From: an uncultured Bacteroidota bacterium
Lineage (GTDB): Bacteria > Bacteroidota > Ignavibacteria > UBA10030 > UBA6906
DNA length: 64,000 nt
NCBI GenBank assembly: GCA_963700635.1
Contig: CAVOYH010000003.1
Span: 1,824,001 to 1,888,000 of the forward strand
Direction: 5' to 3'
Shown piece by piece: positions 39,468 through 54,010 of the stretch. Numbering within the stretch: position 1 is the stretch's first letter; each line of letters starts with the position of its first letter. The notes below the pieces were generated by a model, which saw nothing but the letters and a program-made list of their open reading frames with translations, was not told the DNA's origin and ran no database searches. The position numbers and the translations under genes are program-made.

Positions 39468-41273
39468 ATGCTCGAACCGATCAAGCAGGTGAACATACTC
39501 GATATCGCTGTCATCGTATCCTATCTCCTCATGCTGACCGGCGTCGGCATTTATCTGACGCGGTTCAACAAAACCGTTGACGATTTTTTCAAGGGGGGAG
39601 GGAAGATACCGTGGTGGATCTCGGGCTTGTCGACGTTTGTGGCCGGTTTTTCTGCATTCATGTTCGTTGCGGCTGCAGGATACACCTATAAGAACGGTCT
39701 CGGAGCCATGGTTCTGTTTACATCGGCCGTGTGGGGCTATGGTCTGGGGTTCCTGGTGTATGCTCGCCTGTGGCGCCGCTCACGCCTCTCGTCGCCCATG
39801 GAACTTCTTACACGCCGTTTTTCCCAGGGGACGACATACTATTACACGCTCCTGTCCATTGTCCCGGCAGTTATGGGGTTGGGGTTGAGTATCTACATCC
39901 TGTGTATTTTTGTGGCAACGGCACTCGGCATCATGTCGGTGACAGTGAACGTCGGTTTCATGCAGCTTTCGGGGCTGGAAATCTCGATGATTGTTACCGG
40001 GGTAGTCATGCTCATCTATACGAGTGCCGGGGGTCTCTGGGCGGTGGTCATCACCGATTCTCTCCAGTTCTTCATCATTCTGATCGTGTCCCTCCTGATC
40101 TTCCCGCTCACGTTTTTTGCGCTTGGGAACTCTTCAAACATCCTCGTTGGTTTTGAACGGCTGTTTGCGGAAGCCCCGGGCGGGTATCTTACACTGGTGG
40201 ATGTGTTTACCCGTCCCTGGTTCTACCTCGCCTATCTGATAAGCTCACTCATCGGGTACAATGCCGCGTGGCACATCGGCCAGCGGTACTACAGTGTGCC
40301 GACGGAGATCGACGCACGAAAGATGGCCCTGCTCTGCGCTGGACTGAGTATGGTGCTTCCCGTGTTGTGGATCGCTCCGACGATGGCGGCCCGGATAATG
40401 GTTCCCGATATCGCCGCGCTCTGGCCGCAGCTTGCAGAACCCGCGGAAGCATCATATGTCACGCTCGCACTGACGCTGCTTCCGAACGGCCTCATCGGCC
40501 TGACCCTCTCCGCGATCCTTGCAGCGACCATGACGTCCATCGACACGCAGCTCAACTATCTGGCATCAATTCTTGTCCGTGACGTCTTTGCGAAGATGCG
40601 ATCGACGCTTACGCTCAAGGACGCCAGTGAGCGGGGTCTGCTTAATGCAGGGCGGATCACCGCATTCACGCTCGGCATCCTGGCGATTATCACTGCAATC
40701 ATTGTCCAGCGCTCCAAGGGTGTGTTTGATTTTGCGCTGATGTACTATTCATGGTTTGCACCATCCATGCTGACGCCTGTTATGCTGGGGTTCCTCTATC
40801 GCCGTACTCCTTCCTGGTCGGCTATTGCAGCCGCGTCGGCAGGGTTGTTCGTCGTGTTGATAACCAACGTGTTTATTGATGTACGACCGTATCAATATGA
40901 GGTGAACATTTTCGGTGGGGTCGGGGTGACCGCGCTGGTGTTCTTCCTCTCTGCATTCTTTACCGAACGGGACGTCAGGGCCGGGCAGCAGAGAAACGAA
41001 CTCTTCGCCGATCTCGTCAAGCCGGCAACGGATGATCGACTTCGGTGGTCGGCAAATGCCCTGTCATCGTATCGAATCGTCGGGCTTCTGACCGCATCGA
41101 TCGGCGTCACCGTGCTCGGACTCGGACTTGTCCCGACAACGCCCGTTGTCCGGACCCTGACGCTCTTGCTTGGCTCGGGGACGGCGCTTCTCGGGTGGTC
41201 GATGATGTGGTATTTCCGCCGCCAGTCGCGTCAACAGGCGGCTTCCGGAAAACAGGAGGAGCCTCATTCATGA
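39468..41273 (+). CDS. Sodium:solute symporter (SSS family)
   Basis: DFFKGGGKIPWW, YTSAGGLWAVVITDSLQ, QRYYS, AATMTSID; many TM helices. Confidence 0.92.
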   Translation: MLEPIKQVNILDIAVIVSYLLMLTGVGIYLTRFNKTVDDFFKGGGKIPWWISGLSTFVAGFSAFMFVAAAGYTYKNGLGAMVLFTSAVWGYGLGFLVYARLWRRSRLSSPMELLTRRFSQGTTYYYTLLSIVPAVMGLGLSIYILCIFVATALGIMSVTVNVGFMQLSGLEISMIVTGVVMLIYTSAGGLWAVVITDSLQFFIILIVSLLIFPLTFFALGNSSNILVGFERLFAEAPGGYLTLVDVFTRPWFYLAYLISSLIGYNAAWHIGQRYYSVPTEIDARKMALLCAGLSMVLPVLWIAPTMAARIMVPDIAALWPQLAEPAEASYVTLALTLLPNGLIGLTLSAILAATMTSIDTQLNYLASILVRDVFAKMRSTLTLKDASERGLLNAGRITAFTLGILAIITAIIVQRSKGVFDFALMYYSWFAPSMLTPVMLGFLYRRTPSWSAIAAASAGLFVVLITNVFIDVRPYQYEVNIFGGVGVTALVFFLSAFFTERDVRAGQQRNELFADLVKPATDDRLRWSANALSSYRIVGLLTASIGVTVLGLGLVPTTPVVRTLTLLLGSGTALLGWSMMWYFRRQSRQQAASGKQEEPHS

Positions 41274-42190
41274 AACGCCCCATACGCGTCAGCAGCGTCC
41301 AGCTGCCGACGGTGGTTCCCGGAAAGAGTTTCGCGGAGAGACAACGGAACAATCTCCGCGGTATTCTGGACTCCCTCCGGACGGCGGGGGAGCGATCCAG
41401 CGACCTCGTGCTGCTCGGTGAATATGCCAATCTACACCACCGGACCTGGTCGACCAACCGGAAGGAATATGTGCCGGACCCGATTCCGGGAAAAACGACA
41501 TCCGCCATTGCTGCATCCGCACGCAGGTACCGAATGAATGTGGCCTTTCCCATGTTTGGCGTCTGGCAGGGTGTGCTCTCAAGCTACGTCGTACTCTTCG
41601 ATCGGCGCGGCACGATTATCGGCTGCTACCAGAAATCACATCCCACGGAGCACGAACAGGAACTGGGAATCCGCCCGGGTGAGGATATTCCGGTCTATCA
41701 GCTTGATTGTGCGCGTGTCGGGATCATGACCTGTATGGATATTGAATATCCCGAGGTCGCCCAGGTGCTCATGCTCCGGGGTGCGGAGCTTCTCCTGTTT
41801 CCCCATGTCCAGGCAAGCTGGGGGGAAGTGGACTGGGAGATCCGCTATCGGGCGCGGGCGGTCGATACCGGTCTGCCCGTGGTCTCCGCCTGCTATGGAT
41901 ACGCAGAAGGAGAGTGGATGCCCGGCAAGATGATCGGACGAAGCAGCGTTGTGGGGCGCGACGGACTCATTCTCGCGGATCTTGGACGCCACGTCGGGGT
42001 GCTGACACACGAGATTGATCTCGGGAAGGGACGGCGGACGCTCTTCTTCTTCAATACCGTCTACGACCGGACCAATGCTGTGATTGCGTCTCGACGGCCC
42101 GAGTTGTACCATGTACTTGTTGATCCGGCCCCGAAAGAGCTGGTACGGCGCCGGCTGCGTTCCCGTCCGAAAGGAGTGCGTCATGGCTGA
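41270..42190 (+). CDS. Carbon-nitrogen hydrolase (nitrilase superfamily)
   Basis: E-K-C triad: LLGEY, YQKSH, MTCMDIEYPE; GRSSVVG, SRRPELY. Confidence 0.9.
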   Translation: MKRPIRVSSVQLPTVVPGKSFAERQRNNLRGILDSLRTAGERSSDLVLLGEYANLHHRTWSTNRKEYVPDPIPGKTTSAIAASARRYRMNVAFPMFGVWQGVLSSYVVLFDRRGTIIGCYQKSHPTEHEQELGIRPGEDIPVYQLDCARVGIMTCMDIEYPEVAQVLMLRGAELLLFPHVQASWGEVDWEIRYRARAVDTGLPVVSACYGYAEGEWMPGKMIGRSSVVGRDGLILADLGRHVGVLTHEIDLGKGRRTLFFFNTVYDRTNAVIASRRPELYHVLVDPAPKELVRRRLRSRPKGVRHG

Positions 42191-42977
42191 ATCTCTCCCT
42201 GTTGCAGTGATCACCGGCGCAAGCAGGGGTCTGGGGCGGGGCATCGCCCGAAAACTTGCCGAGCAGGGCTTTTCACTCGTCATCAACTATGCGGGAAACG
42301 CAGAGGCCGCCGCTGAGACGGTTGAGGTGTGCAAGGCGCGACAATCCCATCTTGACCAGCGGTTCGTCGCCTTCCAGGCAGATATGGCGGTACAGGAGGA
42401 TCGTCTTCGTCTCGTCGACCAGACTCTGAGTGGCCTCGGACGCATCGATGTTCTCGTGAACAATGCCGGTATCGGCCCGCACGTCCGTGCGGACGTCACC
42501 GAGACATCACTTGAATCGTTCCAGCACGTGCTCCAGGTCAACCTGGAAGGCCCGTTTTTCCTCACACAGGCGGTCGTCCGATACTGGCTCGAACAACGTC
42601 CCGATCCTGTCCTGCCGCATGGATTCAGCATCGTCAATATTTCCTCTGTTTCGGCCGATACCGCGTCGCTCAACAGGGGGGAGTATTGTATTTCCAAAGC
42701 CGGACTCTCAATGGTGACACAGCTCTGGGCCGTCCGCCTTGCGTCACACCGGATCCATGTCTATGAACTTCGACCCGGCATTATGGCGACAGACATGACT
42801 GCAGGTGTGAAAGAAAAGTACGACAGGATGCTCGGCGAGGGACTTGTGCCGCAGAACCGGTGGGGTCAACCGGACGATGTCGGCAGAGCAGTGGGTGCGC
42901 TCGTGCGGGGAGACTTCGCGTACTCGACGGGAGGAGTCATCCACCTCGACGGCGGCATGCATCTCAGGAGACTCTAG
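42183..42977 (+). CDS. SDR oxidoreductase (sugar-acid related type, usually annotated 3-ketoacyl-ACP reductase)
   Basis: TGASRGLG, NNAG, SSVS, YCISK, RPGIMATDMT. Confidence 0.9.
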   Translation: MAESLPVAVITGASRGLGRGIARKLAEQGFSLVINYAGNAEAAAETVEVCKARQSHLDQRFVAFQADMAVQEDRLRLVDQTLSGLGRIDVLVNNAGIGPHVRADVTETSLESFQHVLQVNLEGPFFLTQAVVRYWLEQRPDPVLPHGFSIVNISSVSADTASLNRGEYCISKAGLSMVTQLWAVRLASHRIHVYELRPGIMATDMTAGVKEKYDRMLGEGLVPQNRWGQPDDVGRAVGALVRGDFAYSTGGVIHLDGGMHLRRL

Positions 42978-43044: not shown

Positions 43045-44418
43045 ATGATGCATATCCATACTGATCTGACACCTGCCGCACTTCAACCACAGCTACTCCG
43101 CCTGTTCGACCTCTCTGCGCGGAAACTCAGGCTCCTGCACGATTCCTGGGACCCGGCGCACGGGACGCCGGTGTTCACGGTCGCCGGACGCTATACGTCG
43201 CGGGGCTGGACCGAATGGACCCAAGGTTTCCAATTCGGATCAGGCATCCTCCAGTACGATGCCACGGACGAACCGGTGTTTCTGGAGATCGGAAGGAAGG
43301 CGACGGTCTCGCTGATGGCCACACACGTCAGTCATGTCGGTGTCCACGACCATGGCTTCAACAATATCAGCACATACGGCAATCTCCGGCGACTCATGCT
43401 GGAAGGCCGCCTTCCGATGAACGACTGGGAACGCACCTTCTATGAGCTCGCCCTCAAGGTGAGCGGAGCTGTCCAGGCGGCACGGTGGACTGACCTGGGC
43501 GGGGGGGCCGGATACATCTATTCGTTCAACGGTCCGCACTCCCTGTTTGCGGATACGGTTCGTTCGCTCCGGGTTCTGGCTGTCGCCCACCAGCTCGGCC
43601 ACGTGCTGATGGGAGAAAAGGATAGGAAGATCTCGCTCCTGGAACGGCTCCTTGCACACGGGGCAGCAACCTCGACATACAATGTGTATTTCGGCGAGGG
43701 GCGGGACATCTATGACATCCGGGGACGTGTCGCACACGAATCCATTTTCAATCTGAATGACGGCTCGTATCGCTGCCCGAGTTCCCAGCAGGGATATGCG
43801 CCGTTCACAACATGGACACGCGGGCAGGCCTGGATTCTGTGCGGGTTCGCAGAACAACTTGAGTTTCTTTCGACGCTTCAGGATACGGCATTCCCGGCCG
43901 ATCGTCCGAAAGACGCCGTCCTGGAGCTTTTCGAACGAACGGCGGAAGCAGTAGCCGACTTCTACATTGAGCAAACGCCCATCGATGGCATCCCGTACTG
44001 GGATACCGGGGCACCGGGGTTGGCCCGGATGGGGGACTACCGTGCGCAGCCTGCCGATCCGTTCAACGACTTCGAACCGGTCGACAGTTCCGCGGCGGTC
44101 ATTGCAGCCCAGGGACTCCTGCGCTTCGGGGGGTATCTCCAGCAGAAAGGGTCATCGAAAGAGGGAACACGGTATTTCCAGGCGGGTCTGACGGTGGCGA
44201 AGAATCTTTTTGCTGAGCCCTATCTGTCTCTCCAGGATGATCACCAGGGGCTCCTACTCCACTCCGTGTATCATCGTCCGAACGGTTGGGACCACGTGCC
44301 GCCGGGGAGGAAGATCCCGTGTGGCGAGGCAACCATGTGGGGGGACTATCATGCGCGTGAGCTCGCCCTGCTGCTGCTGCGGATGGGATCAGGCAAACCG
44401 TACCTGACGTTCTTCTGA
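43045..44418 (+). CDS. GH88-like unsaturated glycuronyl hydrolase
   Basis: EWTQGF, HDHGF, QQGY, WTRGQAW, PYWD, DSSAAVI, WGDY. Confidence 0.8.
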   Translation: MMHIHTDLTPAALQPQLLRLFDLSARKLRLLHDSWDPAHGTPVFTVAGRYTSRGWTEWTQGFQFGSGILQYDATDEPVFLEIGRKATVSLMATHVSHVGVHDHGFNNISTYGNLRRLMLEGRLPMNDWERTFYELALKVSGAVQAARWTDLGGGAGYIYSFNGPHSLFADTVRSLRVLAVAHQLGHVLMGEKDRKISLLERLLAHGAATSTYNVYFGEGRDIYDIRGRVAHESIFNLNDGSYRCPSSQQGYAPFTTWTRGQAWILCGFAEQLEFLSTLQDTAFPADRPKDAVLELFERTAEAVADFYIEQTPIDGIPYWDTGAPGLARMGDYRAQPADPFNDFEPVDSSAAVIAAQGLLRFGGYLQQKGSSKEGTRYFQAGLTVAKNLFAEPYLSLQDDHQGLLLHSVYHRPNGWDHVPPGRKIPCGEATMWGDYHARELALLLLRMGSGKPYLTFF

Positions 44419-44426: not shown

Positions 44427-45410
44427 TCAGCTATTCACGGCACGGAAGAACGCTTCGAGATTCGCCATCGGAGCCGCTGCAGGAATGTCGCATCCCGACG
44501 AGACGACGAAATTCCGATACTGTTGTGTTTCCTGAAGAAGTGATGTGGTGCGGGCCCCGACTTCGGCCGCACTGCAGCCGACGAACACTTCGGAAGGATC
44601 GAGGTTGCCACAGAGGATCACGTCGCCCGGGACCTTTGCAAGACCCGCGACGATGTCCATCGGTTTCCCGAAGTGAACGATACGCGCCCCCGCCTCCAGT
44701 GATGCCTCCAGATGTCCAATCCGCGCCCCGCAGTTGTGCAGGATAATGCGGAAGGAATCGTCATCCAGAGCATCCACGATTCTGTGTATGTACGGGGATG
44801 AGAACGCCCTGACCGCATTGGGAGACATGAGTCCTGCTGTGGGCTCTGCAATGATAACCCCGTCCGCTCCCTGCTCCTTGAAGGCGCGCGCGTATGCCAA
44901 CAGATACGGTGTTGTTTTCTCGAGAAGAGCATGTATGACATCGGGATCGCCCGCCGTTTCGGCGAGGGACTCGCTGACGCCGAACAGGCGCCCTGCCAGC
45001 GAAAATGGACCGATCATGCCGGCCAGGACGCCGGCATCCGGACATGCCTGCCGGAGTTGCCGGACGGTTTCGATGTAGACAGCGCTGCGTGCCGTGCCGA
45101 CGCCGGGGACCGGCAGCGACTGGATCCCCGCCATGTCCGCCACCAGCCTTCCAATCACAGTGGGTACTTCCCAATCAGCAATCTGGATCGTTGCGCCGAA
45201 CTCCTCCGCTTCAACGCTGAGGTCCATTGCGGACATGACGAATGGCATCCCAAATCGCTCGCGCAGTTTCAGCTGAGCGCGGACCTGGTGTTCGGCGTTG
45301 GAGACCATGGCGCGGACCGTGGTTCTGGCAAGAGAAGCCCCGGGAAACGTCAACACCGGCATCGCGAGCCGCCGGGTGGAAGCACGTATAGTTGTGGTGA
45401 GAGCATTCAT
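44427..45410 (-). CDS. URO-D/MtaA family methyltransferase (MT2-like)
   Basis: DLSVEAEEFGA, GPFSLA, AEP, ILHNCG, GNLDP, SSGCDIP (H-x-C...C zinc motif of MtaA/MtbA). Confidence 0.9.
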   Translation of the reverse strand: MNALTTTIRASTRRLAMPVLTFPGASLARTTVRAMVSNAEHQVRAQLKLRERFGMPFVMSAMDLSVEAEEFGATIQIADWEVPTVIGRLVADMAGIQSLPVPGVGTARSAVYIETVRQLRQACPDAGVLAGMIGPFSLAGRLFGVSESLAETAGDPDVIHALLEKTTPYLLAYARAFKEQGADGVIIAEPTAGLMSPNAVRAFSSPYIHRIVDALDDDSFRIILHNCGARIGHLEASLEAGARIVHFGKPMDIVAGLAKVPGDVILCGNLDPSEVFVGCSAAEVGARTTSLLQETQQYRNFVVSSGCDIPAAAPMANLEAFFRAVNS

Positions 45411-45426
45411 CCTGGTGTATCCTGAC

Positions 45427-46968
45427 CTATCCGTCGGTTGATTCGCTGTCTGCCTCTGGTGCTTCTGCTGGAAAGACCATCTCTTCTACGTACGTGTCCT
45501 GGAACCCCTCAAGTTCGCCGAGAGAAACATGCGTGATCCGGCTGGCGAGTGCATCAAACGCACCAGGCGGCAGAAAGAGACCCATTTTTGCGCCGCGGAG
45601 GGCGGTGTTCCCGGTGGGTTCAATCTTGCCGACAGGGAAGGGGAGCAGGCCAATTCTCCGGGCGCTGCTGATGTTGATATAGTTTCCGAACGCGCCGGCG
45701 AGAAGGACCGTGTGTACATCTTCGCCTGGTATGCCGAACTCCCGCAGCAAAAGGTGGATTCCTGATGCCACCGCCCCTTTTGCGAGCTGAAGCTCGCGGA
45801 TGTCCGTCTGGGAGATTCGGACAGGGTAGCAGAGTTCGAGCTTGTGACTCTTGTCGCTCAGCCGCCCGCTGGGTTGAATGAGGCCGAGATCCAGCGCGCC
45901 CGCCACAGCATCAACGAGGCCGCTTCCACAGATGCCTCGTGGGGGGACATCGCCGAGCACGTGGCAGACCAGCGCGCCCTCGTGGACGTCGACCGACGCG
46001 ACTGCGCCTGTCGAAGCGCGCATGCCCATATAGATCCGCGCTCCCTCGAATGCAGGCCCCGCGGCGGTGGATGCGCACAGCAGGCGTTCCCGGTTTCCAA
46101 CGACGATCTCCCCGTTGGTCCCCAGATCGACAAGCACCGTGGGGAGTTCACTCTCGTGCATATGCGTCGCGAGAATGCCGGCCAGAACATCGCTTCCAAC
46201 GAAACCGCCAATGTTCGGAAGAAACCGTACTGCAGGGCCTCCCGGCACCTCCCAGCCGAGCTCCGACCCGGTAAAGCTCCGACTGCCGAGCTCATGAGAT
46301 TCAAACGGGACGTGCGACAACGGTGTGACGTCAATGTCGCAGAAGAGATGATGCATGACGGTGTTGCCGACGAGGATAATTTCGGCCACCGGGCGGGGCT
46401 CCGGTCCCGACGCTTCGAGGAGGGCGTCGACCATTTTGCCGATCTGCTTCCGCACGGCGGTGGCGAGTCTGGTCCGTACTGTGGGATCAGTGCCTACGCC
46501 CACGCGGCTCATGATATCCGCTCCAAATCTGGCTTGTGCATTCAGTGCGGTGCGGACAGCCAGAACCTCCCCGTTCTGAAGGTCGAGGAGCTGTGCGACA
46601 ATTGTTGTCGACCCCACGTCGATGGCGATTCCTGTTCCGGACCGGGGTGTGAACACAAAATTCGCAGTATCGGCCAGAATCTGGGCTTCCCAGTGGGCCA
46701 TTTCGAGGGTGAGGTCCCCATCGGCCCGGCACTGGCAGCTCAATCGCCACCCGGCCTCGAGCTCCTCTGTGCTCAGCATCTTCTCCTGGGCGGGCGTGAC
46801 CGGCAGTGACCCCTCGAGGACCCGGACACGGCACCCTTTGCACCTGCCATGGCCACCGCAGGGAAATTCCACACCGTGGGAAAAAAGGAGGTCCTGCAAT
46901 CGTGCGCCTGGCGGAGCTTCGATATCCGTGCCCAATGGGCGAAGGCGTATCCTGATTGTGTCACTCAT
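45427..46968 (-). CDS. ATP-dependent corrinoid reductive activator (RACo/RamA-like, 2Fe-2S plus ASKHA, DUF4445)
   Basis: CGGHGRCKGC...RLSC, DVGSTT, GGFVGSD, DLGTNGE, AAGPAFEG, GICGSG, ELQLAKGA, LAGAFG. Confidence 0.92.
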   Translation of the reverse strand: MSDTIRIRLRPLGTDIEAPPGARLQDLLFSHGVEFPCGGHGRCKGCRVRVLEGSLPVTPAQEKMLSTEELEAGWRLSCQCRADGDLTLEMAHWEAQILADTANFVFTPRSGTGIAIDVGSTTIVAQLLDLQNGEVLAVRTALNAQARFGADIMSRVGVGTDPTVRTRLATAVRKQIGKMVDALLEASGPEPRPVAEIILVGNTVMHHLFCDIDVTPLSHVPFESHELGSRSFTGSELGWEVPGGPAVRFLPNIGGFVGSDVLAGILATHMHESELPTVLVDLGTNGEIVVGNRERLLCASTAAGPAFEGARIYMGMRASTGAVASVDVHEGALVCHVLGDVPPRGICGSGLVDAVAGALDLGLIQPSGRLSDKSHKLELCYPVRISQTDIRELQLAKGAVASGIHLLLREFGIPGEDVHTVLLAGAFGNYINISSARRIGLLPFPVGKIEPTGNTALRGAKMGLFLPPGAFDALASRITHVSLGELEGFQDTYVEEMVFPAEAPEADSESTDG

Positions 46969-47714
46969 GGCGTATTGGGTTGTGCGGCAATGATGCGATC
47001 ATCGTATGTGCTTACGACGGTGTGGCCCGGAGGAACAACCAGAAAGTCCTCATCGTCCCACGGCCCATTGACCAGACGTTCCAGGAGACTCAGACTGCCC
47101 GGTATGGCATCGAATGACCACCCATGTTCGGCGGCCCGCTCCCGCGCAACCTGTTCGAACTGGTTGCCTGGTTCAACCCCCATCCCGATGTAGGTGATCT
47201 GTTTGTAGTGCTTCGTCTGATCGCAGAGCGTGTCGTAGAGGTAGCGTGCGTTTTCTTCGCCGTATTTTTCTACGAGCTGTTCGAAGGTCATATCCATACT
47301 GTTCTTGTTCTGGATGGAGAGCTGGCGGAGTTCTCCGCTCGGGTCTCCCCGTTCGATCCAGCCGGATGTCAGGAAATACGTGCCGGGGTTATCCTGGAAG
47401 TACTGCAGGTACCGTTTGCGGCTTCCCATGAAGAGGGTCATGCAGTCGTGGCCGCGGGGGATTACAAGGGGGAGGGTCCGTGTGCGGAGGCCGGCGATAC
47501 CGTTGTTGCACAGGGCATATCCCAGGAGGAGCGCATCATATCCCGGGGTGTCGGCGGCATCGACGGCCACCTGGAGCCGTTCGACCATGCCGGCGGACCC
47601 GATGTCGTGCAGACCCTTCGGGAGAAATGCAAAATCCACCTGGTGAGGCGAACGGGCGATAAGGGAGCAAAGTTCGCGGTAGAGGACTTCGCAGGATACG
47701 AGCTTCAGCTTCAT
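46965..47714 (-). CDS. DUF1638 family protein
   Basis: VSCEVL, GLH, LGYALCNNG, PRGHDCMTLFMG, GTYFLTSGW; family typically found next to corrinoid genes. Confidence 0.85.
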   Translation of the reverse strand: MKLKLVSCEVLYRELCSLIARSPHQVDFAFLPKGLHDIGSAGMVERLQVAVDAADTPGYDALLLGYALCNNGIAGLRTRTLPLVIPRGHDCMTLFMGSRKRYLQYFQDNPGTYFLTSGWIERGDPSGELRQLSIQNKNSMDMTFEQLVEKYGEENARYLYDTLCDQTKHYKQITYIGMGVEPGNQFEQVARERAAEHGWSFDAIPGSLSLLERLVNGPWDDEDFLVVPPGHTVVSTYDDRIIAAQPNTP

Positions 47715-48580
47715 CCGATCGTTCGGATCAATGCTGAAACAAACTCAGGAGAGGTGCCACAACAGCCGCCCACAAAGGCGACTCCGGCTTGCCGTAATCC
47801 TCCGGCCAACGTCGCAAACTCGTCGGCAGTCGTCCGGTACACGATCTCCCCGTTGACCAGCTCGGGCAGGCCGGCGTTGGGTTTGATCCAGACAGGGAGT
47901 GATGTTGCTGCGCGAAGGCGGCGGGCGATGGGGATGTAGCCCTCCATGCCGAGGCCACAATTGGCGCCGATGACATCAGCGCCTGCTTCTGCCAGGGCTT
48001 CTGCGACCTGCTCCGGAGTGGAACCCATCATGGTCCGGTCCTTCTCTTTGCCCGAATCAAAGACCATGGAAGCGACAACGGGAAGTCCCGTACTCCGCGC
48101 GGCTGCGACGGCAAGCAGGGCCTCCCCGAGGTCCGACATTGTTTCGACCACCAGCGCGTCAGGACCGGCGGAGGCGAGGGCGGCGGCTTGTTCGGTGAAA
48201 GCCGTCGTCAGGTCTTCCTCCGTGACATCGCCGCTCATCAGCATCTTTCCGCTCGGACCGATGGATGCGAAGACCATGGCGTTTGTACCGGCAGCAGCGC
48301 GGGAAAGCCTGACGCCGGAGGCATTGAGGTCCACAACCCTGTCCGCCAGACCGTGCCCGATGAGAGCAATCCGATTACTGCGGAACGTGTTTGTGAGAAT
48401 GACCCGGCTGCCGGCATTGACATACCGCCGGGCAACCTCTGTGACCAGGTCAGGATGAGTCAGGTTCCAGCCGTCCGGACATTCGCCCGGGGGAAGGCCG
48501 AGGGCCTGGAGCTGAGTCCCCCATGCGCCATCAGTGATGACGGGAGTCGTTGTGAGAAGACGCTGAAGAGTTGGATGCAT
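47711..48580 (-). CDS. Stand-alone homocysteine S-methyltransferase domain
   Basis: DGAWGT, TNTF, SIGPSG, VETMSD, GANC, PNAGLP, VGGCCGT (three zinc-binding Cys). Confidence 0.93.
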   Translation of the reverse strand: MHPTLQRLLTTTPVITDGAWGTQLQALGLPPGECPDGWNLTHPDLVTEVARRYVNAGSRVILTNTFRSNRIALIGHGLADRVVDLNASGVRLSRAAAGTNAMVFASIGPSGKMLMSGDVTEEDLTTAFTEQAAALASAGPDALVVETMSDLGEALLAVAAARSTGLPVVASMVFDSGKEKDRTMMGSTPEQVAEALAEAGADVIGANCGLGMEGYIPIARRLRAATSLPVWIKPNAGLPELVNGEIVYRTTADEFATLAGGLRQAGVAFVGGCCGTSPEFVSALIRTIG

Positions 48581-48595
48581 TGTGCCCCGATTTAT

Positions 48596-49231
48596 CTAGC
48601 CGGCGACCAGTTTTCGTGCGAGGGCAACGGCTCCGTTCGCATTCGTGCTGTAGCCGTCCGCGCCGATCTCTTCGGCGTATTTCTCTGTCACGGGCGCCCC
48701 CCCGATCATGATCTTCACGCGCGGGCGGACGCCGGCGGCCTTCACCGCTTCAATCGTCGTCTTCATCGAGTTCATGGTGGTTGTGAGAAGGGCCGACATG
48801 GCCATGAGGCCCGCTTGCTTCTCATTCAGCGCAGCGATGAACTTCTCCGGCGAGACATCCACGCCGAGATCAATCACTTCAAAGCCCGCGCCTTCCAGCA
48901 TTGCCCCCACAAGGTTTTTCCCGATGTCGTGGAGATCGCCTTTCACCGTGCCGATGACGACACGACCGGCCGGCTGGGCTCCACTGGCGGTCAAAAGGGG
49001 TCGAATGAGTTCGAGCGAGGCCTTCATTGCCCGGGCCGAGATCAGGAGTTCCGGCACAAAGTATTCATTTGCTTCGTAGCGGCGCCCGACTTCATCCATG
49101 GCGGGAATCATGTGCTCCTGGACCATGACCTGAGGGTCCATGCCCGCTGCAAGCGCCTGCTGTGTGATTTCCCTGGCGGACTTGAAATTCCCGGTCAGGA
49201 TCGCATCATACAGTTTCTTGAGTTCTTCCAT
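48596..49231 (-). CDS. Corrinoid (B12-binding) methyltransferase protein
   Basis: Cap domain FVPELL; GDLHDIGKNLV (DxHxxG), DLGVDV, SALLTTTM, IGGAP. Confidence 0.95.
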   Translation of the reverse strand: MEELKKLYDAILTGNFKSAREITQQALAAGMDPQVMVQEHMIPAMDEVGRRYEANEYFVPELLISARAMKASLELIRPLLTASGAQPAGRVVIGTVKGDLHDIGKNLVGAMLEGAGFEVIDLGVDVSPEKFIAALNEKQAGLMAMSALLTTTMNSMKTTIEAVKAAGVRPRVKIMIGGAPVTEKYAEEIGADGYSTNANGAVALARKLVAG

Positions 49232-49266
49232 TGATTGTCTCTCCTCTCAGAGGTAGTACAGGGTTG

Positions 49267-50316
49267 TTATTGCCGTCCATTTTCGTAAATCGTGTCATAG
49301 AGCGCAAGAATATTCGCCGTCGGTGTTACAGGCTGCAGGTTATGGCAAGGCGCGCAGATCCACCGTGCGCCGGAGAAGATACGGATATTATCCAGTACTT
49401 CCGACCGGACTTCCTCCGGCGATCCGAACGGGAGCGTGTACTGATTGTCGACCGCTCCATGGAAGATGACTTTTTCGCCGAAATCGCGGACGAGCCCTTC
49501 CCGTTCCATTCCCGGGCATCGCCACTGGATGGGATTGAGGAGCTCAATTCCAGTGGTGTTGATAAGGTCGGGGATGATCTCGCGGGCGGCGCCATCCGTG
49601 TGATAGAAGATGTGAATGCCGTAGCGCCGCGCGAGGTCCGCCATCTTCTTCTGGCGTGGGAGAATGAACTTGCGGATCTCGGGAACCCCGAACAGCAGGG
49701 CGGTCTGACCGCCGAGGTCTTCGGCGACGTAGGTGACGTCGATACGCCCTTTCCCGATGTCGAAGGCCTTCTCATTGACAGTGTAGTGATACCGGAAAAT
49801 GTACTCCAGGGCCGTGTCCACAAATTCCTGGTCGACGAGGAGATCCATCATTGCGAGCTCCATACCCCGGAGAGCGCAATACAGGAGGAACGGCTCGAAT
49901 TCTCCCGAACGTACAGCCCGGTGTGCCGGAGCAGCGGCAATATCGGACCGGAACCGGTCAAAATCGTGGTCGGCAGGGTCCGGCCATGCGTACGCATGCA
50001 GCTCATCCACTGATGTCATCTCGGCAAAAGGATGATTTGCGAACTCATCGTACACACCCTCTCCATAATCAATCGATGTGCGCCGGAGGCCCCAGATATC
50101 CGCTTCGGGATCGCCAGGGTGGTGGTCGACCGTCCGTACAGGATTGATGTGCACGAGCCCATCGATGTGGAGGCGCGTGTACAACGTTTCCTTGTCGGCA
50201 CACTGCAACTCCCGCAACAGGCGGGCCGTTACTTCGTCCGTTGCCCAGTAGTCAGTGGGAATACGATCAGATTTCTTGCCTGTAAACAGGGCCAGCCAGC
50301 GTTCCCGAGGAGTCAT
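49267..50316 (-). CDS. URO-D/MtaA family protein
   Basis: MTPRER, LRGME, AEDLGGQ, FYHTDG, LNPIQ, FHGAVDNQ, APCHNLQ. Confidence 0.9.
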   Translation of the reverse strand: MTPRERWLALFTGKKSDRIPTDYWATDEVTARLLRELQCADKETLYTRLHIDGLVHINPVRTVDHHPGDPEADIWGLRRTSIDYGEGVYDEFANHPFAEMTSVDELHAYAWPDPADHDFDRFRSDIAAAPAHRAVRSGEFEPFLLYCALRGMELAMMDLLVDQEFVDTALEYIFRYHYTVNEKAFDIGKGRIDVTYVAEDLGGQTALLFGVPEIRKFILPRQKKMADLARRYGIHIFYHTDGAAREIIPDLINTTGIELLNPIQWRCPGMEREGLVRDFGEKVIFHGAVDNQYTLPFGSPEEVRSEVLDNIRIFSGARWICAPCHNLQPVTPTANILALYDTIYENGRQ

Positions 50317-50409
50317 GAAAAGTAAAATGCACCATTATTGTGAGAGAATCAACACTTTTTCAGGGGCATTTCATTTGTAAATCGGCGTTTCATTTGCTAT
50401 TTTTCGTCT
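50317..50409. promoter_or_regulatory. AT-rich divergent promoter pair, both transcripts probably leaderless
   Basis: + strand TTGTAA(50375)-17-TATTTT(50398)-6 nt-ATG; - strand TTGATT(50352)-17-CATTTT(50329)-7 nt-ATG; no Shine-Dalgarno on either side. Confidence 0.6.
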
Positions 50410-51540
50410 ATGATTACGCCCCGAGAGCGCGTCCTGGCTGCAATGAACGGAGGGATTCCGGACAAAGTGCCGTTTATGTGCCAGCTCAGCATCGGCCATA
50501 TGCTGCTCGCGCTCGATGAGTCGCCTGCGGGGTTCTGGCACGATCCGGACACGTACGCCGAAGGCCTTGTCCGTTTGCGCGCACTGTACGGTTTTGACGG
50601 TATCCTGGTGAGCCTTCATGGCCATGATCCGGACTGGCGCACGCGGGTGAAAAAGTTCTGGATTACAGAGGAGGGGGAAGAGGTGCTCTGGGCCAACGGC
50701 GATCGCACCATCTACCCCCTGAATGAGCTCCCCCGACACCAGCCCGCGCAGGACCCCGCCGCCCCGTTGCTGGAAGAGTACCCGCTGGACACTCTTCCCG
50801 ATCGACTTGACTACATCCCCGTTTCCCGGGGACTCCACTTTGCCCTCCACCTCGACCACCTATTCGACGTGTTCCAGGACCTCCGGGTCAGGACAGATGG
50901 CCGGTACTCGATTCACGGCGAAGTGACCTCTCCGCTCGACTACTACCTCGATATTTTCGGCATCGACGCCGGACTCATGGGGATGATTGACGATCCGGAA
51001 AAAGTCGAGCAGATACTGCTGCATTTTGCCAGGCTTGTGGGGGACCTGGCAGGGCGAATGTGCGGAACGGGTGTTGACGCGATCAAAGTCTCCTCGCCCT
51101 TCGCCGGGGCAGGATTCCTGTCGCAGGACTTCTATCGCCGGTTCGTTCTCCCGGCTGAAACCGTGGTTGTGAGCGCCATCCGCTCTCACGGTGTCCACGC
51201 CTATCTCCACACTTGCGGCGCGATCGGCGACAGGCTGGAGCTGATGTTTGCTTCCGGGGCGTCGGGGATCGAATGTCTGGATCCGCCTCCTCTCGGCAAT
51301 GTGGAACTCCGGGAGGCGAAGACGCGTACCCGGCATCTCGGCTTCATCAAAGGCAATCTCGATTCGGTCAATACTCTCCTCAATGGATCGCCTGAGCACA
51401 TTGTCGCTGATGCGCAGGAACGCCTTGCCATTGGCAGGGAAGGGGGAGGATTTATCCTGAGTACCGCGTGTTCGGTTGCACCGGGCGTGAAACCGGAGAG
51501 CCTTCTTCTTGTCCGGGACGTTGTGGAACGGTGCGGATAG
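50410..51540 (+). CDS. URO-D/MtaA family protein
   Basis: MITPRER, YLHTCG, ECLDP, KGNLD, GFILSTACSV. Confidence 0.9.
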   Translation: MITPRERVLAAMNGGIPDKVPFMCQLSIGHMLLALDESPAGFWHDPDTYAEGLVRLRALYGFDGILVSLHGHDPDWRTRVKKFWITEEGEEVLWANGDRTIYPLNELPRHQPAQDPAAPLLEEYPLDTLPDRLDYIPVSRGLHFALHLDHLFDVFQDLRVRTDGRYSIHGEVTSPLDYYLDIFGIDAGLMGMIDDPEKVEQILLHFARLVGDLAGRMCGTGVDAIKVSSPFAGAGFLSQDFYRRFVLPAETVVVSAIRSHGVHAYLHTCGAIGDRLELMFASGASGIECLDPPPLGNVELREAKTRTRHLGFIKGNLDSVNTLLNGSPEHIVADAQERLAIGREGGGFILSTACSVAPGVKPESLLLVRDVVERCG

Positions 51541-51577
51541 CTCCGCGATGGAGTTCGCACGTGAAAGGATTCTCTGT

Positions 51578-54010
51578 ATGTCGACGACGACACTGTGGAA
51601 GACTGCTCTGGCATGTGTCTGTGCAACAACACTCATGCGGGGAGGGACATTGACGTCTTCGCGCAACGAACAGCCGGGCTTCCTTTCCGTCCCCCAACTC
51701 ACCAGAGCCGGCATCGTCTGCACGAATAGCTTTGGCTCTGCGCTGTACAGGCTCGACGGGTCAACAGTTGTGGAGATCGCTTCCGGGCCTGGCGTGGGTC
51801 TCTATTATACCATCTCCCCTGATGGGGCACGGGTTGGTTTCAAACGAATTACGGATGAGGGCCTTCAGGTGCCGTCGATCCTCGACCCGGCGACGGGGAA
51901 GAGCGAATCGCTCACCGCACCCGTACGGCAGGCAGGGCAGGTCAGCTTTACGGATGACGGGAGGATGGCGTTCACAATCGGGTCCGAGATGGTCGTCACC
52001 GACGGAGTCATCGAACACCGCTATGACCTCGGCCTCTACGCAAACATCGCTCCGATATCTCCCGACGGTTCGATCGTGGCGTACAACGATGCCGACGACC
52101 AGATATGGGTTCTTTCATTGCAGTCGGGGAAGCGTGAAAAGATCAGCGTTCCCGGGCGGGGGTATTTTTCGCCCCTCTGGTCCCCTGACGGGGCCCGCCT
52201 TGTGTTCCGCGGACTCTCAGGGACCATGCATGTGTACGACCGGACGCCGGGAAACGTCATTGACATAGGGCAAGGCGACCATCCGGCCTGGATGTCTGAC
52301 TCCCGTTCGCTGCTCTTCTATCGAACGACAATCGAGAACGGCCGGCTTGTGGAATCTGATCTTTTCACCATCAGGGCGGATGGGACAGAAGAACGGCAGC
52401 TGACCAGAACGGCTGGTATTCTTGAGATGGATCCCGCTCCGGCGGGGGATGGTACGTCCATTCTGTGTCAGACGCATGCCCTGAACCAGCTGCTGACGGT
52501 GCCCATGGCCACGGGACCGTCGCTTGCAAAGGCCGCTCCTTCGGTTCTTGCAAACGGAAAGGGGCTTTCCATCGTGCCGCGGTTTCCTCCGGCAGTTCAG
52601 CAGCCGGACGTGATTCTCGATATCCCCTATGTTCATCAGGTCTATGACACACCGGACTGGTTTAATGGCCACTGGGCATGTGCCCCAACCCAGGCCATCA
52701 TGCTCCTGGCATACTACAATGTGCTTCCCCCCTGGACCATCGTCTGCAGCTGGCCGAGCCGCCATCCAACGTCCTGGGGAAACTACGTCGCCGATCGGTA
52801 TCGATTTCGTCAGGTAGAATACAGCTTTCTTGCGGACGACCCAAACCAAAGCCCGGCCATGGGGGGATACGGTTACATGTGGACAGGGACATCGAGCCCG
52901 CACTCCCGTATGGCAAGCTACTTCAGGAACCATGGACTCACAGCGACCCAGACCGAATCGACACCGTATAGCACGGCGGCCGCGGAAGTCGGCGGCGGGT
53001 ATCCCTTCAGCATGTGCGTGATGCTCACGGATGCCGGGCATCTGGTCCTCGCGCACGGGTTCGGCGCTGAGCCGCACACGTTTGTGTTCAATGATCCGTA
53101 CGGGAACAAGAACCTGGGGTACATGAACACCGCAGGGAAGAACGTCCTGTACGATTGGCCGGGTTTCAATAACGGGTATCAAAACCTGACCGGAGTAGCC
53201 TGGTGCATTGCGACACGGTCAGTTGCTCCGGCGGTGTCTGATTCCATCGTTGATGATCTCCAGTTCGGGAACGGGTTCACTCTCGCCACAGCTTCGCCGG
53301 CGTCCATGGGGAGGTGGCGGGATCTGACACGGGGATACCAGGGGCATCTCTGGTACACATACACGCAGACCGGTGTGGCCGACACGTGCTTTGCAGAATG
53401 GCGGCCCGCCCTGCAGGCAGCGGGTGCCTACGCGGTCGATGCCTTCATCCCGCTCAGCAATGCCACGCACGCGGTCTACCGGATCGTGCACGCCGAAGGA
53501 TCGGATACCGTCGTCATCGATCAGAGCCCGTACCGCGAGGCCTGGGTCCCTCTGGGCATCTACTCCTTCGATGCCGGGAATTCCGGTCATGTGTACCTCG
53601 GAGACGCGTCCACCGTCGCCGGGCAGGAAATCGTCTTTGATGCACTCCGGTGGAGCCGGGTGGTGACGGCTATGAGCGGGGACATGGTGTCGTTCACCCC
53701 GGCTCGATGGGTCTTACACCAGAATTATCCGAATCCGTTCAATCCGGGCACGACCATACTCTACACGGTCGGCCGAACGGACGAAAGGGCCGGTACGGAG
53801 CGTGGCGGGAGAAGTGTGGGGGATGGTGTGGTACGGCTTGGGGTGTATGATGTGCTGGGAAGGGAGGTGGCGGTGCTGGTCGACGGCGTGGTCTCTCCCG
53901 GTGAGCACAGCGTCGTGTTCGACGCAGGTGGTCTCGCCGGTGGTGTGTACTTCTACAGGCTTCAGACGCCGGCGGGGAGCCTCGTCCGCACCATGCTTTT
54001 CGCGAAATAA
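51578..54010 (+). CDS. Secreted multidomain protein: TolB/PD40 propeller, C39-like peptidase, carbohydrate-binding-like domain, T9SS C-terminal sorting domain
   Basis: ISPDG/WSPDG repeats; HQVY...WACAPT...GHLVLAHG...NDPYG; AEWRP...FDALRW; LHQNYPNPFNP...VYDVLGREV...GVYFYRL. Alternative start 51548. Confidence 0.8.
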   Translation: MSTTTLWKTALACVCATTLMRGGTLTSSRNEQPGFLSVPQLTRAGIVCTNSFGSALYRLDGSTVVEIASGPGVGLYYTISPDGARVGFKRITDEGLQVPSILDPATGKSESLTAPVRQAGQVSFTDDGRMAFTIGSEMVVTDGVIEHRYDLGLYANIAPISPDGSIVAYNDADDQIWVLSLQSGKREKISVPGRGYFSPLWSPDGARLVFRGLSGTMHVYDRTPGNVIDIGQGDHPAWMSDSRSLLFYRTTIENGRLVESDLFTIRADGTEERQLTRTAGILEMDPAPAGDGTSILCQTHALNQLLTVPMATGPSLAKAAPSVLANGKGLSIVPRFPPAVQQPDVILDIPYVHQVYDTPDWFNGHWACAPTQAIMLLAYYNVLPPWTIVCSWPSRHPTSWGNYVADRYRFRQVEYSFLADDPNQSPAMGGYGYMWTGTSSPHSRMASYFRNHGLTATQTESTPYSTAAAEVGGGYPFSMCVMLTDAGHLVLAHGFGAEPHTFVFNDPYGNKNLGYMNTAGKNVLYDWPGFNNGYQNLTGVAWCIATRSVAPAVSDSIVDDLQFGNGFTLATASPASMGRWRDLTRGYQGHLWYTYTQTGVADTCFAEWRPALQAAGAYAVDAFIPLSNATHAVYRIVHAEGSDTVVIDQSPYREAWVPLGIYSFDAGNSGHVYLGDASTVAGQEIVFDALRWSRVVTAMSGDMVSFTPARWVLHQNYPNPFNPGTTILYTVGRTDERAGTERGGRSVGDGVVRLGVYDVLGREVAVLVDGVVSPGEHSVVFDAGGLAGGVYFYRLQTPAGSLVRTMLFAK

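Follow-up and report, generated by a model that had tools for sequence, protein, structure and literature searches.

A corrinoid methyl-transfer operon beside glycan catabolic genes in an uncultured Bacteroidota bacterium: putative O-methyl-sugar demethylation feeding methionine synthesis

In the stretch of DNA analysed here, which covers 64,000 nucleotides (C3:1824001-1888000, hereafter the window), a minus-strand operon at 44427-50316 comprises six genes, UROD349, CoP, HcyMT, DUF1638, RACo and UROD327 (Table 1), whose domains were assigned with Pfam and NCBIfam. The gaps between consecutive genes are of 35, 15, -4, -4 and 16 bp, so that the layout is operon-like. All the elements listed in the original prediction (a URO-D/MtaA protein, a corrinoid protein, a homocysteine methyltransferase, DUF1638, RACo and a second MtaA-like protein) were found, as were those it had placed around them: a third, divergent URO-D paralog 93 bp from the operon start, a fourth within the sugar operon, directly 3' of the ROK kinase gene, and a GH88-like gene 8 bp from the last operon stop codon. 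The window had also been described as devoid of pterin-binding and AdoMet domains, and in a genome-wide search the Pterin_bind and Met_synt_B12 matches indeed all fell elsewhere, with none inside it; MtaB was not found among the window genes. The surrounding glycan catabolic locus encodes a GH38 protein, a trehalase-like protein, a heparinase II/III-like lyase and a DeoC aldolase, together with PfkB, ROK and glycerate kinases, a sugar ABC transporter and an SSF symporter. In the operon that converges on the module, the true start of the SDR gene probably lies downstream of the overlap. The Golvesin_C / Peptidase_C39_2-like protein is also encoded in four related loci and in a paralogous block on contig C4.

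Table 1. Features of the methyl-transfer module and its surroundings (window positions, unless a contig is given)
Feature	Position	Strand	Description
UROD367	17538..18641	+	URO-D paralog in sugar operon after ROK kinase; His-Cys-Asn site
Sodium:solute symporter (SSF)	39468..41273	+	First gene of conserved convergent operon
Carbon-nitrogen hydrolase	41045..42190	+	Nitrilase superfamily amidase; conserved convergent operon
SDR oxidoreductase	42084..42977	+	Conserved convergent operon; kept in homologous loci
GH88-like protein	43045..44418	+	457 aa; distant unsaturated glucuronyl hydrolase-like protein; convergent with operon
UROD327	44427..45410	-	327 aa; MtaA/CmuA-like methyltransferase; URO-D 175 bits
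RACo	45427..46968	-	513 aa; RACo/RamA-like ATP-dependent reductive activator of corrinoid proteins; N-terminal 2Fe-2S Fer2 + Raco_middle + RACo_C_ter
DUF1638	46965..47714	-	249 aa; putative accessory to corrinoid reactivation; PF07796, 128 bits
HcyMT	47711..48580	-	289 aa; stand-alone homocysteine S-methyltransferase, MtgE/MetH module 1-like; S-methyl_trans PF02574, 220 bits
CoP	48596..49231	-	211 aa; corrinoid protein, MtgC/MtbC-like; B12-binding_2 + B12-binding
UROD349	49267..50316	-	349 aa; candidate substrate:corrinoid methyltransferase (MT1), MtaA fold; Pfam URO-D 51.7 bits (weak)
UROD376	50410..51540	+	Divergent URO-D paralog; His-Cys-Cys site
Golvesin_C / Peptidase_C39_2-like protein	51509..54010	+	833 aa; conserved neighbour of UROD349 in related loci
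MeTr-like Pterin_bind protein	C4:926055-926927		

The corrinoid protein consists of a cap and a Rossmann B12 domain with a His-on motif; its best NCBIfam match is MtgC, below the cut-off, and the motif GDLHDIGKN is invariant (24/24 sequences). So is the Zn triad C208/C273/C274 of HcyMT (19/19 sequences), and DUF1638 has five invariant residues of its own (C8, C69, C91, H36 and H89). The genome holds only two copies of DUF1638, one per paralogous operon, and only two of RACo. HcyMT, an MtbC-like CoP, a RamA-like protein and DUF1638 make up the genetically proven split MetH core of Rhodobacterales, as reported for these bacteria (PMC5764234, PMC12478193), and methionine synthesis in Phaeobacter inhibens requires DUF1638 (PMC5764234). 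The gene content thus supports the reading of the operon as a corrinoid methyl relay, in which homocysteine would be the acceptor.

The donor side is the new part of the system, the acceptor and reactivation core being already known. UROD349 scores 30.7 bits against TIGR01463 and has no PDB match by phmmer; the best match of its family profile is MtaA (4ay7, E=7e-4), and a Foldseek search with its AF2 model (pLDDT 95.9) ranks MtaA first (TM 0.71), with UROD structures just below. The residues His239-x-Asp241 ... Cys324-His325 are invariant in the family (38/38 sequences), and the Asp aligns with a zinc cysteine of MtaA, a column assignment that comes from low-identity alignments. A carboxylate in place of Cys is presented as a mark of O- as against S-methyltransferases in the preprint of Kountz and Balskus (PMC10418091), and the UROD349 site is not of the thiol type. 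UROD349 is placed in an uncharacterised MtaA-fold family, whose members are 50-80% identical across phyla, and its sequence supports it, along with the other URO-D proteins of the operon, as a candidate for the donor side. A complex model of CoP and UROD349 further supports binding between the two: its score, computed from our own alignments, was 0.83, against 0.01 for the best of 3 controls, and the mark it passes, which denotes likeness rather than binding, is reached by 58/80 solved complexes and 2/110 mismatched pairs. The runs had at least 91% of contacts in common, with a partner pLDDT of at least 91, and the modelled interface involves the nearly invariant helix 52-67 of the CoP cap, along with the loop that follows His101.

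The other URO-D proteins of the window have different sites (Table 1). UROD327 (125.9 bits on TIGR01463, below the 235.4 cut-off) shows, when aligned to MtaA 4ay7, a His-Cys-Cys thiol-type zinc site with H225, C227 and C307 invariant in 16/16 sequences, and it may be either a second acceptor-side methyltransferase or an S-methyl donor methyltransferase. Across the genome there are 24 URO-D paralogs for 3 small CoPs, and most paralogs have no CoP nearby; 13 of 18 other paralogs lie at most 4 genes from sugar genes, as against 3-4/13 random neighbourhoods (p=0.01-0.03, with classes assigned by eye and a small control). The GH88-like protein has no match in Pfam or NCBIfam, but its residues 231-447 match the unsaturated glucuronyl hydrolase 1vd5 (E=1.3e-8) and its closest Atlas clusters bear the names GH88/UGL, so the label is acceptable as a distant likeness.

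The connection to sugar catabolism put forward in the original prediction is borne out by homologous loci. The operon of GH88-like, SDR, CN hydrolase and SSF genes adjoins the module in 12 of the 17 assessable ones, and a rearranged form (L062) carries SSF, CN hydrolase, SDR, GH88-like, FGGY kinase and UROD349 on one strand. The whole module has been duplicated along with sugar genes in the C4 block, from which UROD376 is absent. In a sister clade, UROD349 orthologues (63-69% identical) sit between RhaA (L-rhamnose isomerase) and a GH78 rhamnosidase, in operons in which RACo and the genes for an FGGY kinase and a UROD376 orthologue run in the same direction; these rhamnose operons account for 10/80 genome loci and 4/80 metagenome loci, that is, 14 loci from two collections, although the arrangement is confined to one clade and may represent a single evolutionary event. 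UROD376 orthologues (58-60% identity) stand at their head, upstream of FGGY-RhaA-UROD349 in six loci. DUF1638 gave 0/5 matches in the rhamnose-clade genomes searched, so the hub differs there. UROD349 is the first operon gene in all 18 genome loci where HcyMT adjoins it, and it adjoins CoP in 24/80 genome loci, from Bacteroidota, Ignavibacteriota, Lentisphaerae, Verrucomicrobiia and Planctomycetota. In L113, L114 and L091 the acceptor clustered with it is Pterin_bind together with MTHFR, and in L112, as in loci of the window type, it is HcyMT; in Planctomycetota, the family is clustered with pterin-binding methyltransferases. Among 251 Planctomycetota genomes, RACo is present in 19/21 with a UROD349 orthologue versus 65/230 without (Fisher p=2e-8, kinship ignored). 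Most orthologues of Planctomycetota and Verrucomicrobiota are found in contexts that vary and have neither sugar nor corrinoid genes close by.

The genome also contains two loci of canonical MetH, each of which has B12 and AdoMet activation domains of its own, and, separately, a folate-linked corrinoid cluster (C4:923925-928195) in which the MeTr-like pterin-binding methyltransferase comes with its own CoP, URO-D and MTHFR. The module is thus accessory and not the housekeeping synthase. The C4 methyltransferase could serve the operon CoP; with this protein, and with the pterin-binding partners seen in Planctomycetota, the folate independence initially proposed is not established.

The explanation that we favour, to which we give an even chance, is that the operon demethylates O-methyl sugars without oxygen and feeds methionine synthesis with the methyl groups, the sugar being a putative substrate. 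UROD349, acting as a zinc enzyme of the MtaA fold with a His/Asp/Cys-His site of the oxygen type, would take the methyl group from an O-methylated sugar released by the neighbouring glycan locus and hand it to the Co(I) of CoP; HcyMT would move it from CH3-Co(III) to homocysteine, yielding methionine, while the demethylated sugar would enter ordinary catabolism. RACo, helped by DUF1638, would re-reduce Co(II) to Co(I) using ATP. The thiol-type UROD327 and UROD376 might be extra acceptor-side methyltransferases, through which methyl groups overflow to a further thiol, or might act as donors for S-methyl compounds, and the URO-D paralogs scattered in sugar operons may supply the same corrinoid hub. 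Domain content, conserved sites, gene contexts and the complex model are what was observed; which way the methyl moves, what donates it and the whole of the chemistry are deduced from them. We know of no description of a sugar demethylase of this kind. As for the substrate, we would guess first at an O-methylated 6-deoxyhexose, for instance 3-O-methyl-rhamnose derived from Rha-uronate glycans. O-methyl-rhamnose does occur as a natural substrate. It is reported in terminal position in the AGPs of bryophytes and ferns, among them Sphagnum (PMC6918356), and it also occurs in the calcium spirulan of cyanobacteria (PMC11339812). The methyl-sugar relay originally proposed is supported by comparison in its homocysteine acceptor, its URO-D donor candidates and its sugar link, and nothing points to the N-methyl sugars that it also included. 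Against the sugar, methionine can absorb a catabolic methyl flux only to a limited extent, and the high identity of UROD349 across phyla could better fit one small universal donor, for example methanol.

This last point leads to the most probable rival, unlikely in our view, in which a non-sugar donor methylates CoP on the way to homocysteine and the sugar genes are bystanders. [quoted passage not shown] According to PMC10418091, characterised URO-D-type MT1 enzymes act on aryl methyl ethers and the MtaA/MtsA types on thiols; the record titles of related MAGs mention fens, peat, lake sediment and soil, and the thiol-type sites of UROD327 and UROD376, like the many orthologues without sugar genes around them, fit it too. 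Against it, UROD349 is embedded between RhaA and GH78, follows GH88-like and FGGY kinase genes on the same strand in L062 and keeps the GH88-like operon beside it, and the window has no MtaB and UROD349 no thiol-type site. Still less probably, the operon encodes a split methionine synthase like that of Phaeobacter, which draws on CH3-THF in the ordinary way, its CoP methylated by a pterin-binding module encoded elsewhere and the URO-D genes being unrelated passengers or minor alternative donors. The set of HcyMT, CoP, DUF1638 and a RamA-like protein is exactly that of P. inhibens, where the pterin-binding gene is also unlinked (PMC5764234), and in Ruegeria a single CoP is described as being shared between donor demethylation and the synthesis of methionine (PMC12478193). 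A pterin-binding partner elsewhere, which the original prediction had named as grounds against the methyl-sugar relay and for this reading, does exist on C4, but it is grouped with a CoP, URO-D and MTHFR of its own, and an ordinary housekeeping synthase is unparsimonious because of the two canonical MetH loci; UROD349 opening every HcyMT-adjoining operon, its modelled binding to CoP and the duplication of the whole module with sugar genes also speak against it. That the URO-D proteins are other TIM-barrel sugar enzymes, such as decarboxylases, incidentally next to CoP, is very improbable: the fold does include cofactor-free decarboxylases, UROD structures rank just under MtaA, the TIGR01463 score is low and CoPs are few, but the CoP adjacency recurs in several phyla, RACo co-occurs with UROD349 and enters the rhamnose operons, the controls of the complex model are flat and a metal-type site occupies the MtaA zinc position.

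Returning to methyl-sugar demethylation, the closest known system is the split MetH/MtgBCDE network of Rhodobacterales (P. inhibens, Ruegeria pomeroyi; PMC5764234, PMC12478193). As described there, it shares the MtgE-type HcyMT, the MtbC/MtgC-like CoP, the RamA-like Fer2+DUF4445 protein and DUF1638, and one corrinoid hub joins donor demethylation to methionine synthesis in both. The donor enzyme is of the URO-D/MtaA fold here and MttB-family MtgB there, the pterin-binding MtgD has no counterpart in our operon, canonical MetH is also present here, and the setting, which there is glycine betaine in aerobic marine Alphaproteobacteria, is here the catabolism of glycans, uronates and rhamnose in MAGs of the FCB group. 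The three-component O-demethylases of anaerobes, presented in PMC10418091 as a UroD-superfamily MT1, a CoP, a pterin-binding MT2 and an ATP-dependent activating enzyme, follow the same MT1-CoP-MT2-activator logic with a UroD-superfamily donor and a RACo-type activator, and the Planctomycetota clusters resemble them even in Pterin_bind and MTHFR. In contrast, their acceptor yields CH3-THF and not methionine through HcyMT, UROD349 retains the His/Asp/Cys-His site at the MtaA position, and it would presumably act on an alkyl (sugar) methyl ether, chemically harder for Co(I) than an aryl one. [quoted passage not shown] A cluster hypothesised in Ca. Electryoneota (PMC9324843), with an MttB/MtgB homologue, HcyMT, a corrinoid protein and an activation protein, would likewise make methionine from an unknown methyl donor via a corrinoid protein, beside canonical MetH, but with an MttB-family donor and an AdoMet-type activation domain where we find a URO-D-type donor, RACo and DUF1638. 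Finally, the cytochrome P450 sugar demethylases of marine Bacteroidetes, which act on 6-O-methyl-galactose (PMC6292453), have the same purpose and also belong to glycan loci, where they remove a methyl ether that blocks sugar catabolism; they are reported to depend on oxygen and to release formaldehyde, whereas the system proposed here would be anoxic and would conserve the methyl group.

The gene-by-gene account of the operon in the original prediction was borne out by the ORF listing and by Pfam and NCBIfam searches (see the table). The 4.2 Mb genome comes in six contigs, with the window at C3:1824001-1888000, and its closest relatives, as judged by UROD349, the first gene of the operon, are uncultured Bacteroidota and Ignavibacteriota MAGs. 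The six operon genes are spaced by 35, 15, -4, -4 and 16 bp, and the end of a 457-aa GH88-like neighbour lies 8 bp from the operon. This neighbour had no match in Pfam or NCBIfam; by phmmer against the PDB it matched the unsaturated glucuronyl hydrolase 1vd5 (E=1.3e-8, C-terminal half only), and its Atlas neighbours carry the names GH88/UGL. Domain searches also confirmed that neither a pterin-binding nor an AdoMet-activation domain is found within the window. Rfam had 0 matches anywhere in the window, hence no cobalamin or SAM riboswitch, and a promoter and terminator scan of 43800-51800 did no better than shuffles. Among sequencing runs, no RNA run with this sequence was listed, and the DNA runs that held some of it shared at most 0.15 of its words.

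Features of the window and of loci elsewhere (positions are those of the window unless a contig or locus is named)
Feature	Position	Strand	Remarks
UROD349	49267-50316	-	ORF listing, Pfam, NCBIfam
CoP (corrinoid protein), 211 aa	48596-49231	-	PF02607 + PF02310
HcyMT (homocysteine methyltransferase), stand-alone	47711-48580	-	PF02574, 220 bits
DUF1638	46965-47714	-	Pfam
RACo activator (Fer2+RACo)	45427-46968	-	Pfam
UROD327	44427-45410	-	Pfam, NCBIfam
UROD376 (URO-D paralog)	50410-51540	divergent from operon	93 bp away
UROD367 (URO-D paralog)	17538-18641		after ROK kinase, in sugar operon
GH88-like neighbour, 457 aa	43045-44418		
Nitrilase-superfamily amidase	41045-42190		
PhyH-family dioxygenase	54038-54862	-	just past module
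Polysaccharide deacetylase	54795-55754	+	just past module
Nine long ORFs of the sugar locus	517-2898, 5180-6640, 9068-10930, 18613-20865, 22741-25077, 26246-28126, 31218-32594, 32359-34671, 36625-39447		458-940 aa, without Pfam match
Duplicated block, window copy	39468-54010		
Duplicated block, C4 copy (L107)	C4:41168-54604		
Canonical MetH (L108)	C3:1688849-1692377		two ORFs
Canonical MetH (L109)	C6:126354-129883		two ORFs
Third corrinoid cluster (L094)	C4:923925-928195		
Microcompartment locus (L116)	C4:417929-426226		
URO-D array, Verrucomicrobiia MAG	L074:4515-16474		
AA_permease_2, rhamnose operon	L038:13866-15227		between GH78 and RACo

The UROD349 family is very well conserved (65-83% identity among the best 120 database matches) and large: a one-genome-per-species search gave 376 matches, and a search of 1.84 billion representatives gave 316 clusters at E<=1e-30, rising to 2690 at E<=1e-10. 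A single-sequence phmmer search of the PDB returned nothing meaningful; the family profile has MtaA (4ay7, E=7e-4) as its sole match there, and MtaA is also the nearest fold to the AlphaFold model (pLDDT 95.9; TM 0.71), followed by uroporphyrinogen decarboxylases. H239, D241, C267, H286, C324 and H325 are invariant in 38 UROD349 sequences from at least five phyla. In the profile alignment to MtaA, H239 corresponds to the zinc His and D241 to a zinc Cys position, while the third Cys falls on H325, beside C324. According to the Kountz and Balskus preprint (PMC10418091), His-Cys-Cys marks S/Se substrates and a carboxylate replacing Cys marks O substrates. With D241 at the zinc-Cys position, UROD349 would be of the oxygen type by that rule, and UROD327, whose H225/C227/C307 are invariant in 16/16 sequences, would be of the thiol type (His-Cys-Cys), as would UROD376. 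The site of UROD367 reads His-x-Cys ... Asn, so that it lacks the full His-x-Cys ... Cys. None of these four is an MtaA/CmuA equivalog, since their TIGR01463 scores (125.9 bits for UROD327, 92.1 for UROD376, 33.3 for UROD367 and 30.7 for UROD349) all lie under the curated cut-off of 235.4 bits.

We examined the contexts of 80 of the 376 genome matches and 80 of 577 metagenome matches. CoP is found beside or near UROD349 in 24 of the 80 genome loci, in Bacteroidota, Ignavibacteriota, Lentisphaerae, Verrucomicrobiia and Planctomycetota, and the full operon recurs in 18/80 genome and 8/80 metagenome loci. The first five Planctomycetota genomes tested all had RACo; among 251 sampled from this phylum, 21 have a UROD349 orthologue and 84 have RACo, which is found in 19 of the 21 with the orthologue vs 65 of the 230 without it (Fisher p 2e-8, with kinship ignored and incomplete MAGs included). 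The neighbour domain table for Planctomycetota and other phyla used GC3-filtered ORFs, a filter that picked antisense ORFs in some high-GC loci, so that some neighbours may be miscalled in the following arrangements: HcyMT-CoP-URO-D-UROD349-...-RACo (L112), RACo-CoP-MTHFR-Pterin_bind-amidohydrolase-DUF1638-five URO-D genes (L113), RACo-Pterin_bind-RecQ-CoP-UROD349 (L114), and a locus with CoP, Pterin_bind, amidohydrolase and three URO-D genes (L091). A constant UROD349 with swapped HcyMT or pterin acceptors is what would be expected of a donor-side, substrate:corrinoid methyltransferase (MT1). Many other orthologues lie in contexts that are uninformative as read with the GC3-filtered ORFs.

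A complex model of CoP with UROD349 scored 0.83 vs 0.01 for the best of three controls, a mark that is reached by 58 of 80 solved complexes and by 2 of 110 mismatched pairs. Its runs, for which our own alignments were used, have at least 91% of contacts in common, with a partner pLDDT of at least 91. The model supports binding of the two proteins, short of demonstrating it; to our knowledge, no complex of MtaA with a corrinoid protein has been solved. Moreover, a UroD-superfamily protein, a CoP and an ATP-dependent activator share one operon here, as in corrinoid O-demethylase systems.

Several loci show further associations. In the Planctomycetota loci L113 and L091, Pterin_bind and the URO-D array are separated by an Amidohydro_1 gene, and the nitrilase-type amidase is conserved beside the window-type module, so that a C-N hydrolase partner recurs. 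In L074, a Verrucomicrobiia locus, MtaB (methanol:corrinoid methyltransferase, 558 bits) precedes an uninterrupted run of eight URO-D paralogs, one of them a UROD349 orthologue, with CoP and HcyMT within 9 kb.

As for the acceptor half, the HcyMT zinc cysteine triad C208/C273/C274 is invariant in 19/19 sequences, and so is the His-on motif of CoP (DxHxxG type, GDLHDIGKN) in 24/24. The operon has a RamA-like (Fer2+DUF4445) activator and DUF1638 instead of an AdoMet activation domain; the genome holds two RACo and two DUF1638 genes in total, one pair in the window and the other in the paralogous operon on contig C4. The same gene set serves as a split MetH in Phaeobacter inhibens, where fitness data assign methionine synthesis to HcyMT, an MtbC-like CoP, a RamA-like Fer2+DUF4445 protein and DUF1638, with the pterin-binding piece unlinked (PMC5764234). 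A study on Ca. Electryoneota hypothesizes an MttB homologue with HcyMT and CoP and an unidentified donor (PMC9324843). The acceptor half is thus already known, and the donor half is the new part.

The proposed attachment to sugar catabolism extends across genomes: a convergent SSF-CN hydrolase-SDR-GH88-like operon adjoins the module in 12 of the 17 homologous loci whose sequence extends about 3 kb or more past the operon, and is missing beside it in the other five (L026, L030, L036, L041 and L051). In L062 the arrangement is rearranged and still linked, with SSF, CN hydrolase, SDR, GH88-like, FGGY kinase and UROD349 all on one strand. A sister clade (63-69% identity) has a rhamnose operon made of a UROD376 orthologue, FGGY kinase, L-rhamnose isomerase (630 bits), UROD349, GH78 alpha-L-rhamnosidase, an amino-acid permease and RACo. 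This arrangement, which may represent one evolutionary event, occurs in 10/80 genome loci (L022, L024, L032, L033, L035, L038, L040, L042, L043 and L080, several of them incomplete) and in 4/80 metagenome loci. The five rhamnose-clade genomes searched all have CoPs, the best of which adjoins a URO-D of the type in L094, the third corrinoid cluster, and DUF1638 was found in none of the five. The AA_permease_2 between GH78 and RACo is conserved in L038, L024, L032, L035, L040, L042, L043, L080, L142 and L143; one may speculate that it carries methionine, homocysteine or a methyl acceptor.

The genome encodes 24 URO-D paralogs besides HemE. Outside both modules and UROD367 there are 18, and 13 of these lie within four genes of sugar-catabolic or transport genes, whereas among 14 random neighbourhoods, one of them itself a URO-D locus, 3-4 of the other 13 have sugar genes (p=0.01-0.03, with the classes of both sets assigned by eye). 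Some of these sugar-linked genes are in tight same-strand operons, such as SSF-ABC-cupin-URO-D-PrsW-GHMP kinase-fucose isomerase-like (found twice), PFK-unknown-URO-D-HAD-URO-D-rhamnose mutarotase, GH97-URO-D and GxGYxYP-URO-D. Most of the paralogs embedded among sugar genes have another residue at one or both zinc-cysteine positions, as read from a low-identity alignment. The random control set also yielded a microcompartment locus (L116) with BMC, EutN, PTAC, aldehyde dehydrogenase, class II aldolase and acetate kinase, a type used for fucose/rhamnose-derived propanediol. In the window itself, the nine Pfam-less ORFs of the sugar locus may encode glycoside hydrolases or lyases of undescribed kinds; eight of them, including 31218-32594, had no match in NCBIfam, and neither did 36625-39447, 18613-20865 and 32359-34671 in the PDB by phmmer. 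Past the module, genes for LytTR response regulators and for a Y_Y_Y hybrid sensor kinase come after the dioxygenase/deacetylase pair.

Contig C4 carries a second copy of the module, a block of 11 genes at 51-91% amino-acid identity comprising SSF, CN hydrolase, SDR, GH88-like, the six operon genes and an 833-aa Golvesin_C-like neighbour; the C4 copy is without UROD376. Both copies also have FGGY kinase homologues at a distance of about 32-33 kb, which may mean that a much longer stretch was duplicated. The genome contamination of 6.7% would fit a C4 block coming from a second, co-binned organism, but C4 amounts to 1.02 Mb of the 4.2 Mb genome, and we therefore judge true paralogy more likely. 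Contig C6 (182 kb), with several duplicates of C3 regions, might be a foreign, co-binned relative.

What is shown here are the genes, their motifs and contexts and the complex model; the direction of transfer, the donor and the chemistry are our inference. An O-methyl sugar would lose its methyl group to Co(I)-CoP by the action of UROD349, HcyMT would discharge CH3-Co(III) to homocysteine, and RACo with DUF1638 would repair Co(II). UROD327 and UROD376 would have one of two roles, passing surplus methyl groups to another thiol or drawing them from S-methyl donors, and other URO-D paralogs may use the same corrinoid hub. Sugar methyl ethers (methyl-rhamnose, methyl-fucose, methyl-galactose, 4-O-methyl-glucuronate) block glycolytic processing, and a methyl ether on rhamnose would presumably block its isomerase, kinase and aldolase steps. 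O-methyl-rhamnose occurs in nature where such MAGs live: terminal 3-O-methyl-rhamnose is described in arabinogalactan proteins of bryophytes (including Sphagnum) and ferns (PMC6918356), and 3-O-methyl- and 2,3-di-O-methyl-rhamnose in cyanobacterial calcium spirulan (PMC11339812).

Weak points and other readings have to be weighed. Methionine is a small sink for methyl flux, and the high conservation of UROD349 may point to a small universal donor in place of a sugar. The module could also be fed by CH3-THF, with the MeTr-like pterin-binding methyltransferase of L094 serving this CoP; that protein sits with its own CoP, URO-D (320 aa, without a His-x-Cys motif) and MTHFR, in a cluster that has no activator of its own and is not linked to the window operon. 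The module is not the organism's split MetH, since canonical MetH is present and no pterin module is linked. Indeed, there are two MetH loci, each made of two ORFs (Hcy+pterin, then cap+B12+AdoMet-activation) with alike, duplicated syntenic flanks (NMO, thioredoxin-like, Fer4, metallo-beta-lactamase), in addition to one HcyMT-MTHFR fusion and one lone HcyMT; by gene content the window module is thus accessory to methionine synthesis. We also considered flow in the opposite direction, in which sugars would be methylated from methionine or SAM through CoP, and rejected it: methionine gives up its methyl group poorly, and the operon has no SAM-binding module.

The observation behind the original prediction is thus confirmed, and its interpretation is supported in part: the contexts support the relay and its sugar linkage, and the claimed folate independence is open to doubt, given the folate-linked corrinoid system on C4. 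That UROD349 founds a widespread group of cobalamin-dependent O-methyl-sugar demethylases, with methyl conservation and a battery of paralogs, is a tentative reading of sequence data to which we give slightly under an even chance. If true, the family would be the anoxic counterpart of P450 sugar demethylases. Glycan degraders from several phyla, whether anaerobic or facultative, could use it to make methylated deoxyhexoses (3-O-methyl-rhamnose, for example) accessible to catabolism, and would keep the methyl group as methionine through an HcyMT hub or as CH3-THF through a pterin hub. The URO-D paralogs scattered over this genome, two dozen in number, would be sugar-specific donors to the same corrinoid hubs, and many genes now labelled 'uroporphyrinogen decarboxylase family' would gain a function. 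Such a demethylase would also account for the disposal of methyl sugars in anoxic sediments, peat and guts, bring alkyl methyl ethers within the range of Co(I) chemistry, and tie glycan degradation to B12 demand and to methionine/C1 supply. Our literature search, with most subscription journals outside its scope, returned no corrinoid-dependent sugar demethylase and no mention of URO-D genes within polysaccharide loci; such sugar-demethylating enzymes as it did bring up were all oxygen-dependent P450s.

Among known systems, that of the window would resemble both the MtgBCDE/split-MetH network and the corrinoid O-demethylases in the way it works. It differs from the latter in that its operon has HcyMT where a pterin-binding MT2 (acceptor side) giving CH3-THF would be, although Pterin_bind partners do occur with UROD349 orthologues in Planctomycetota.
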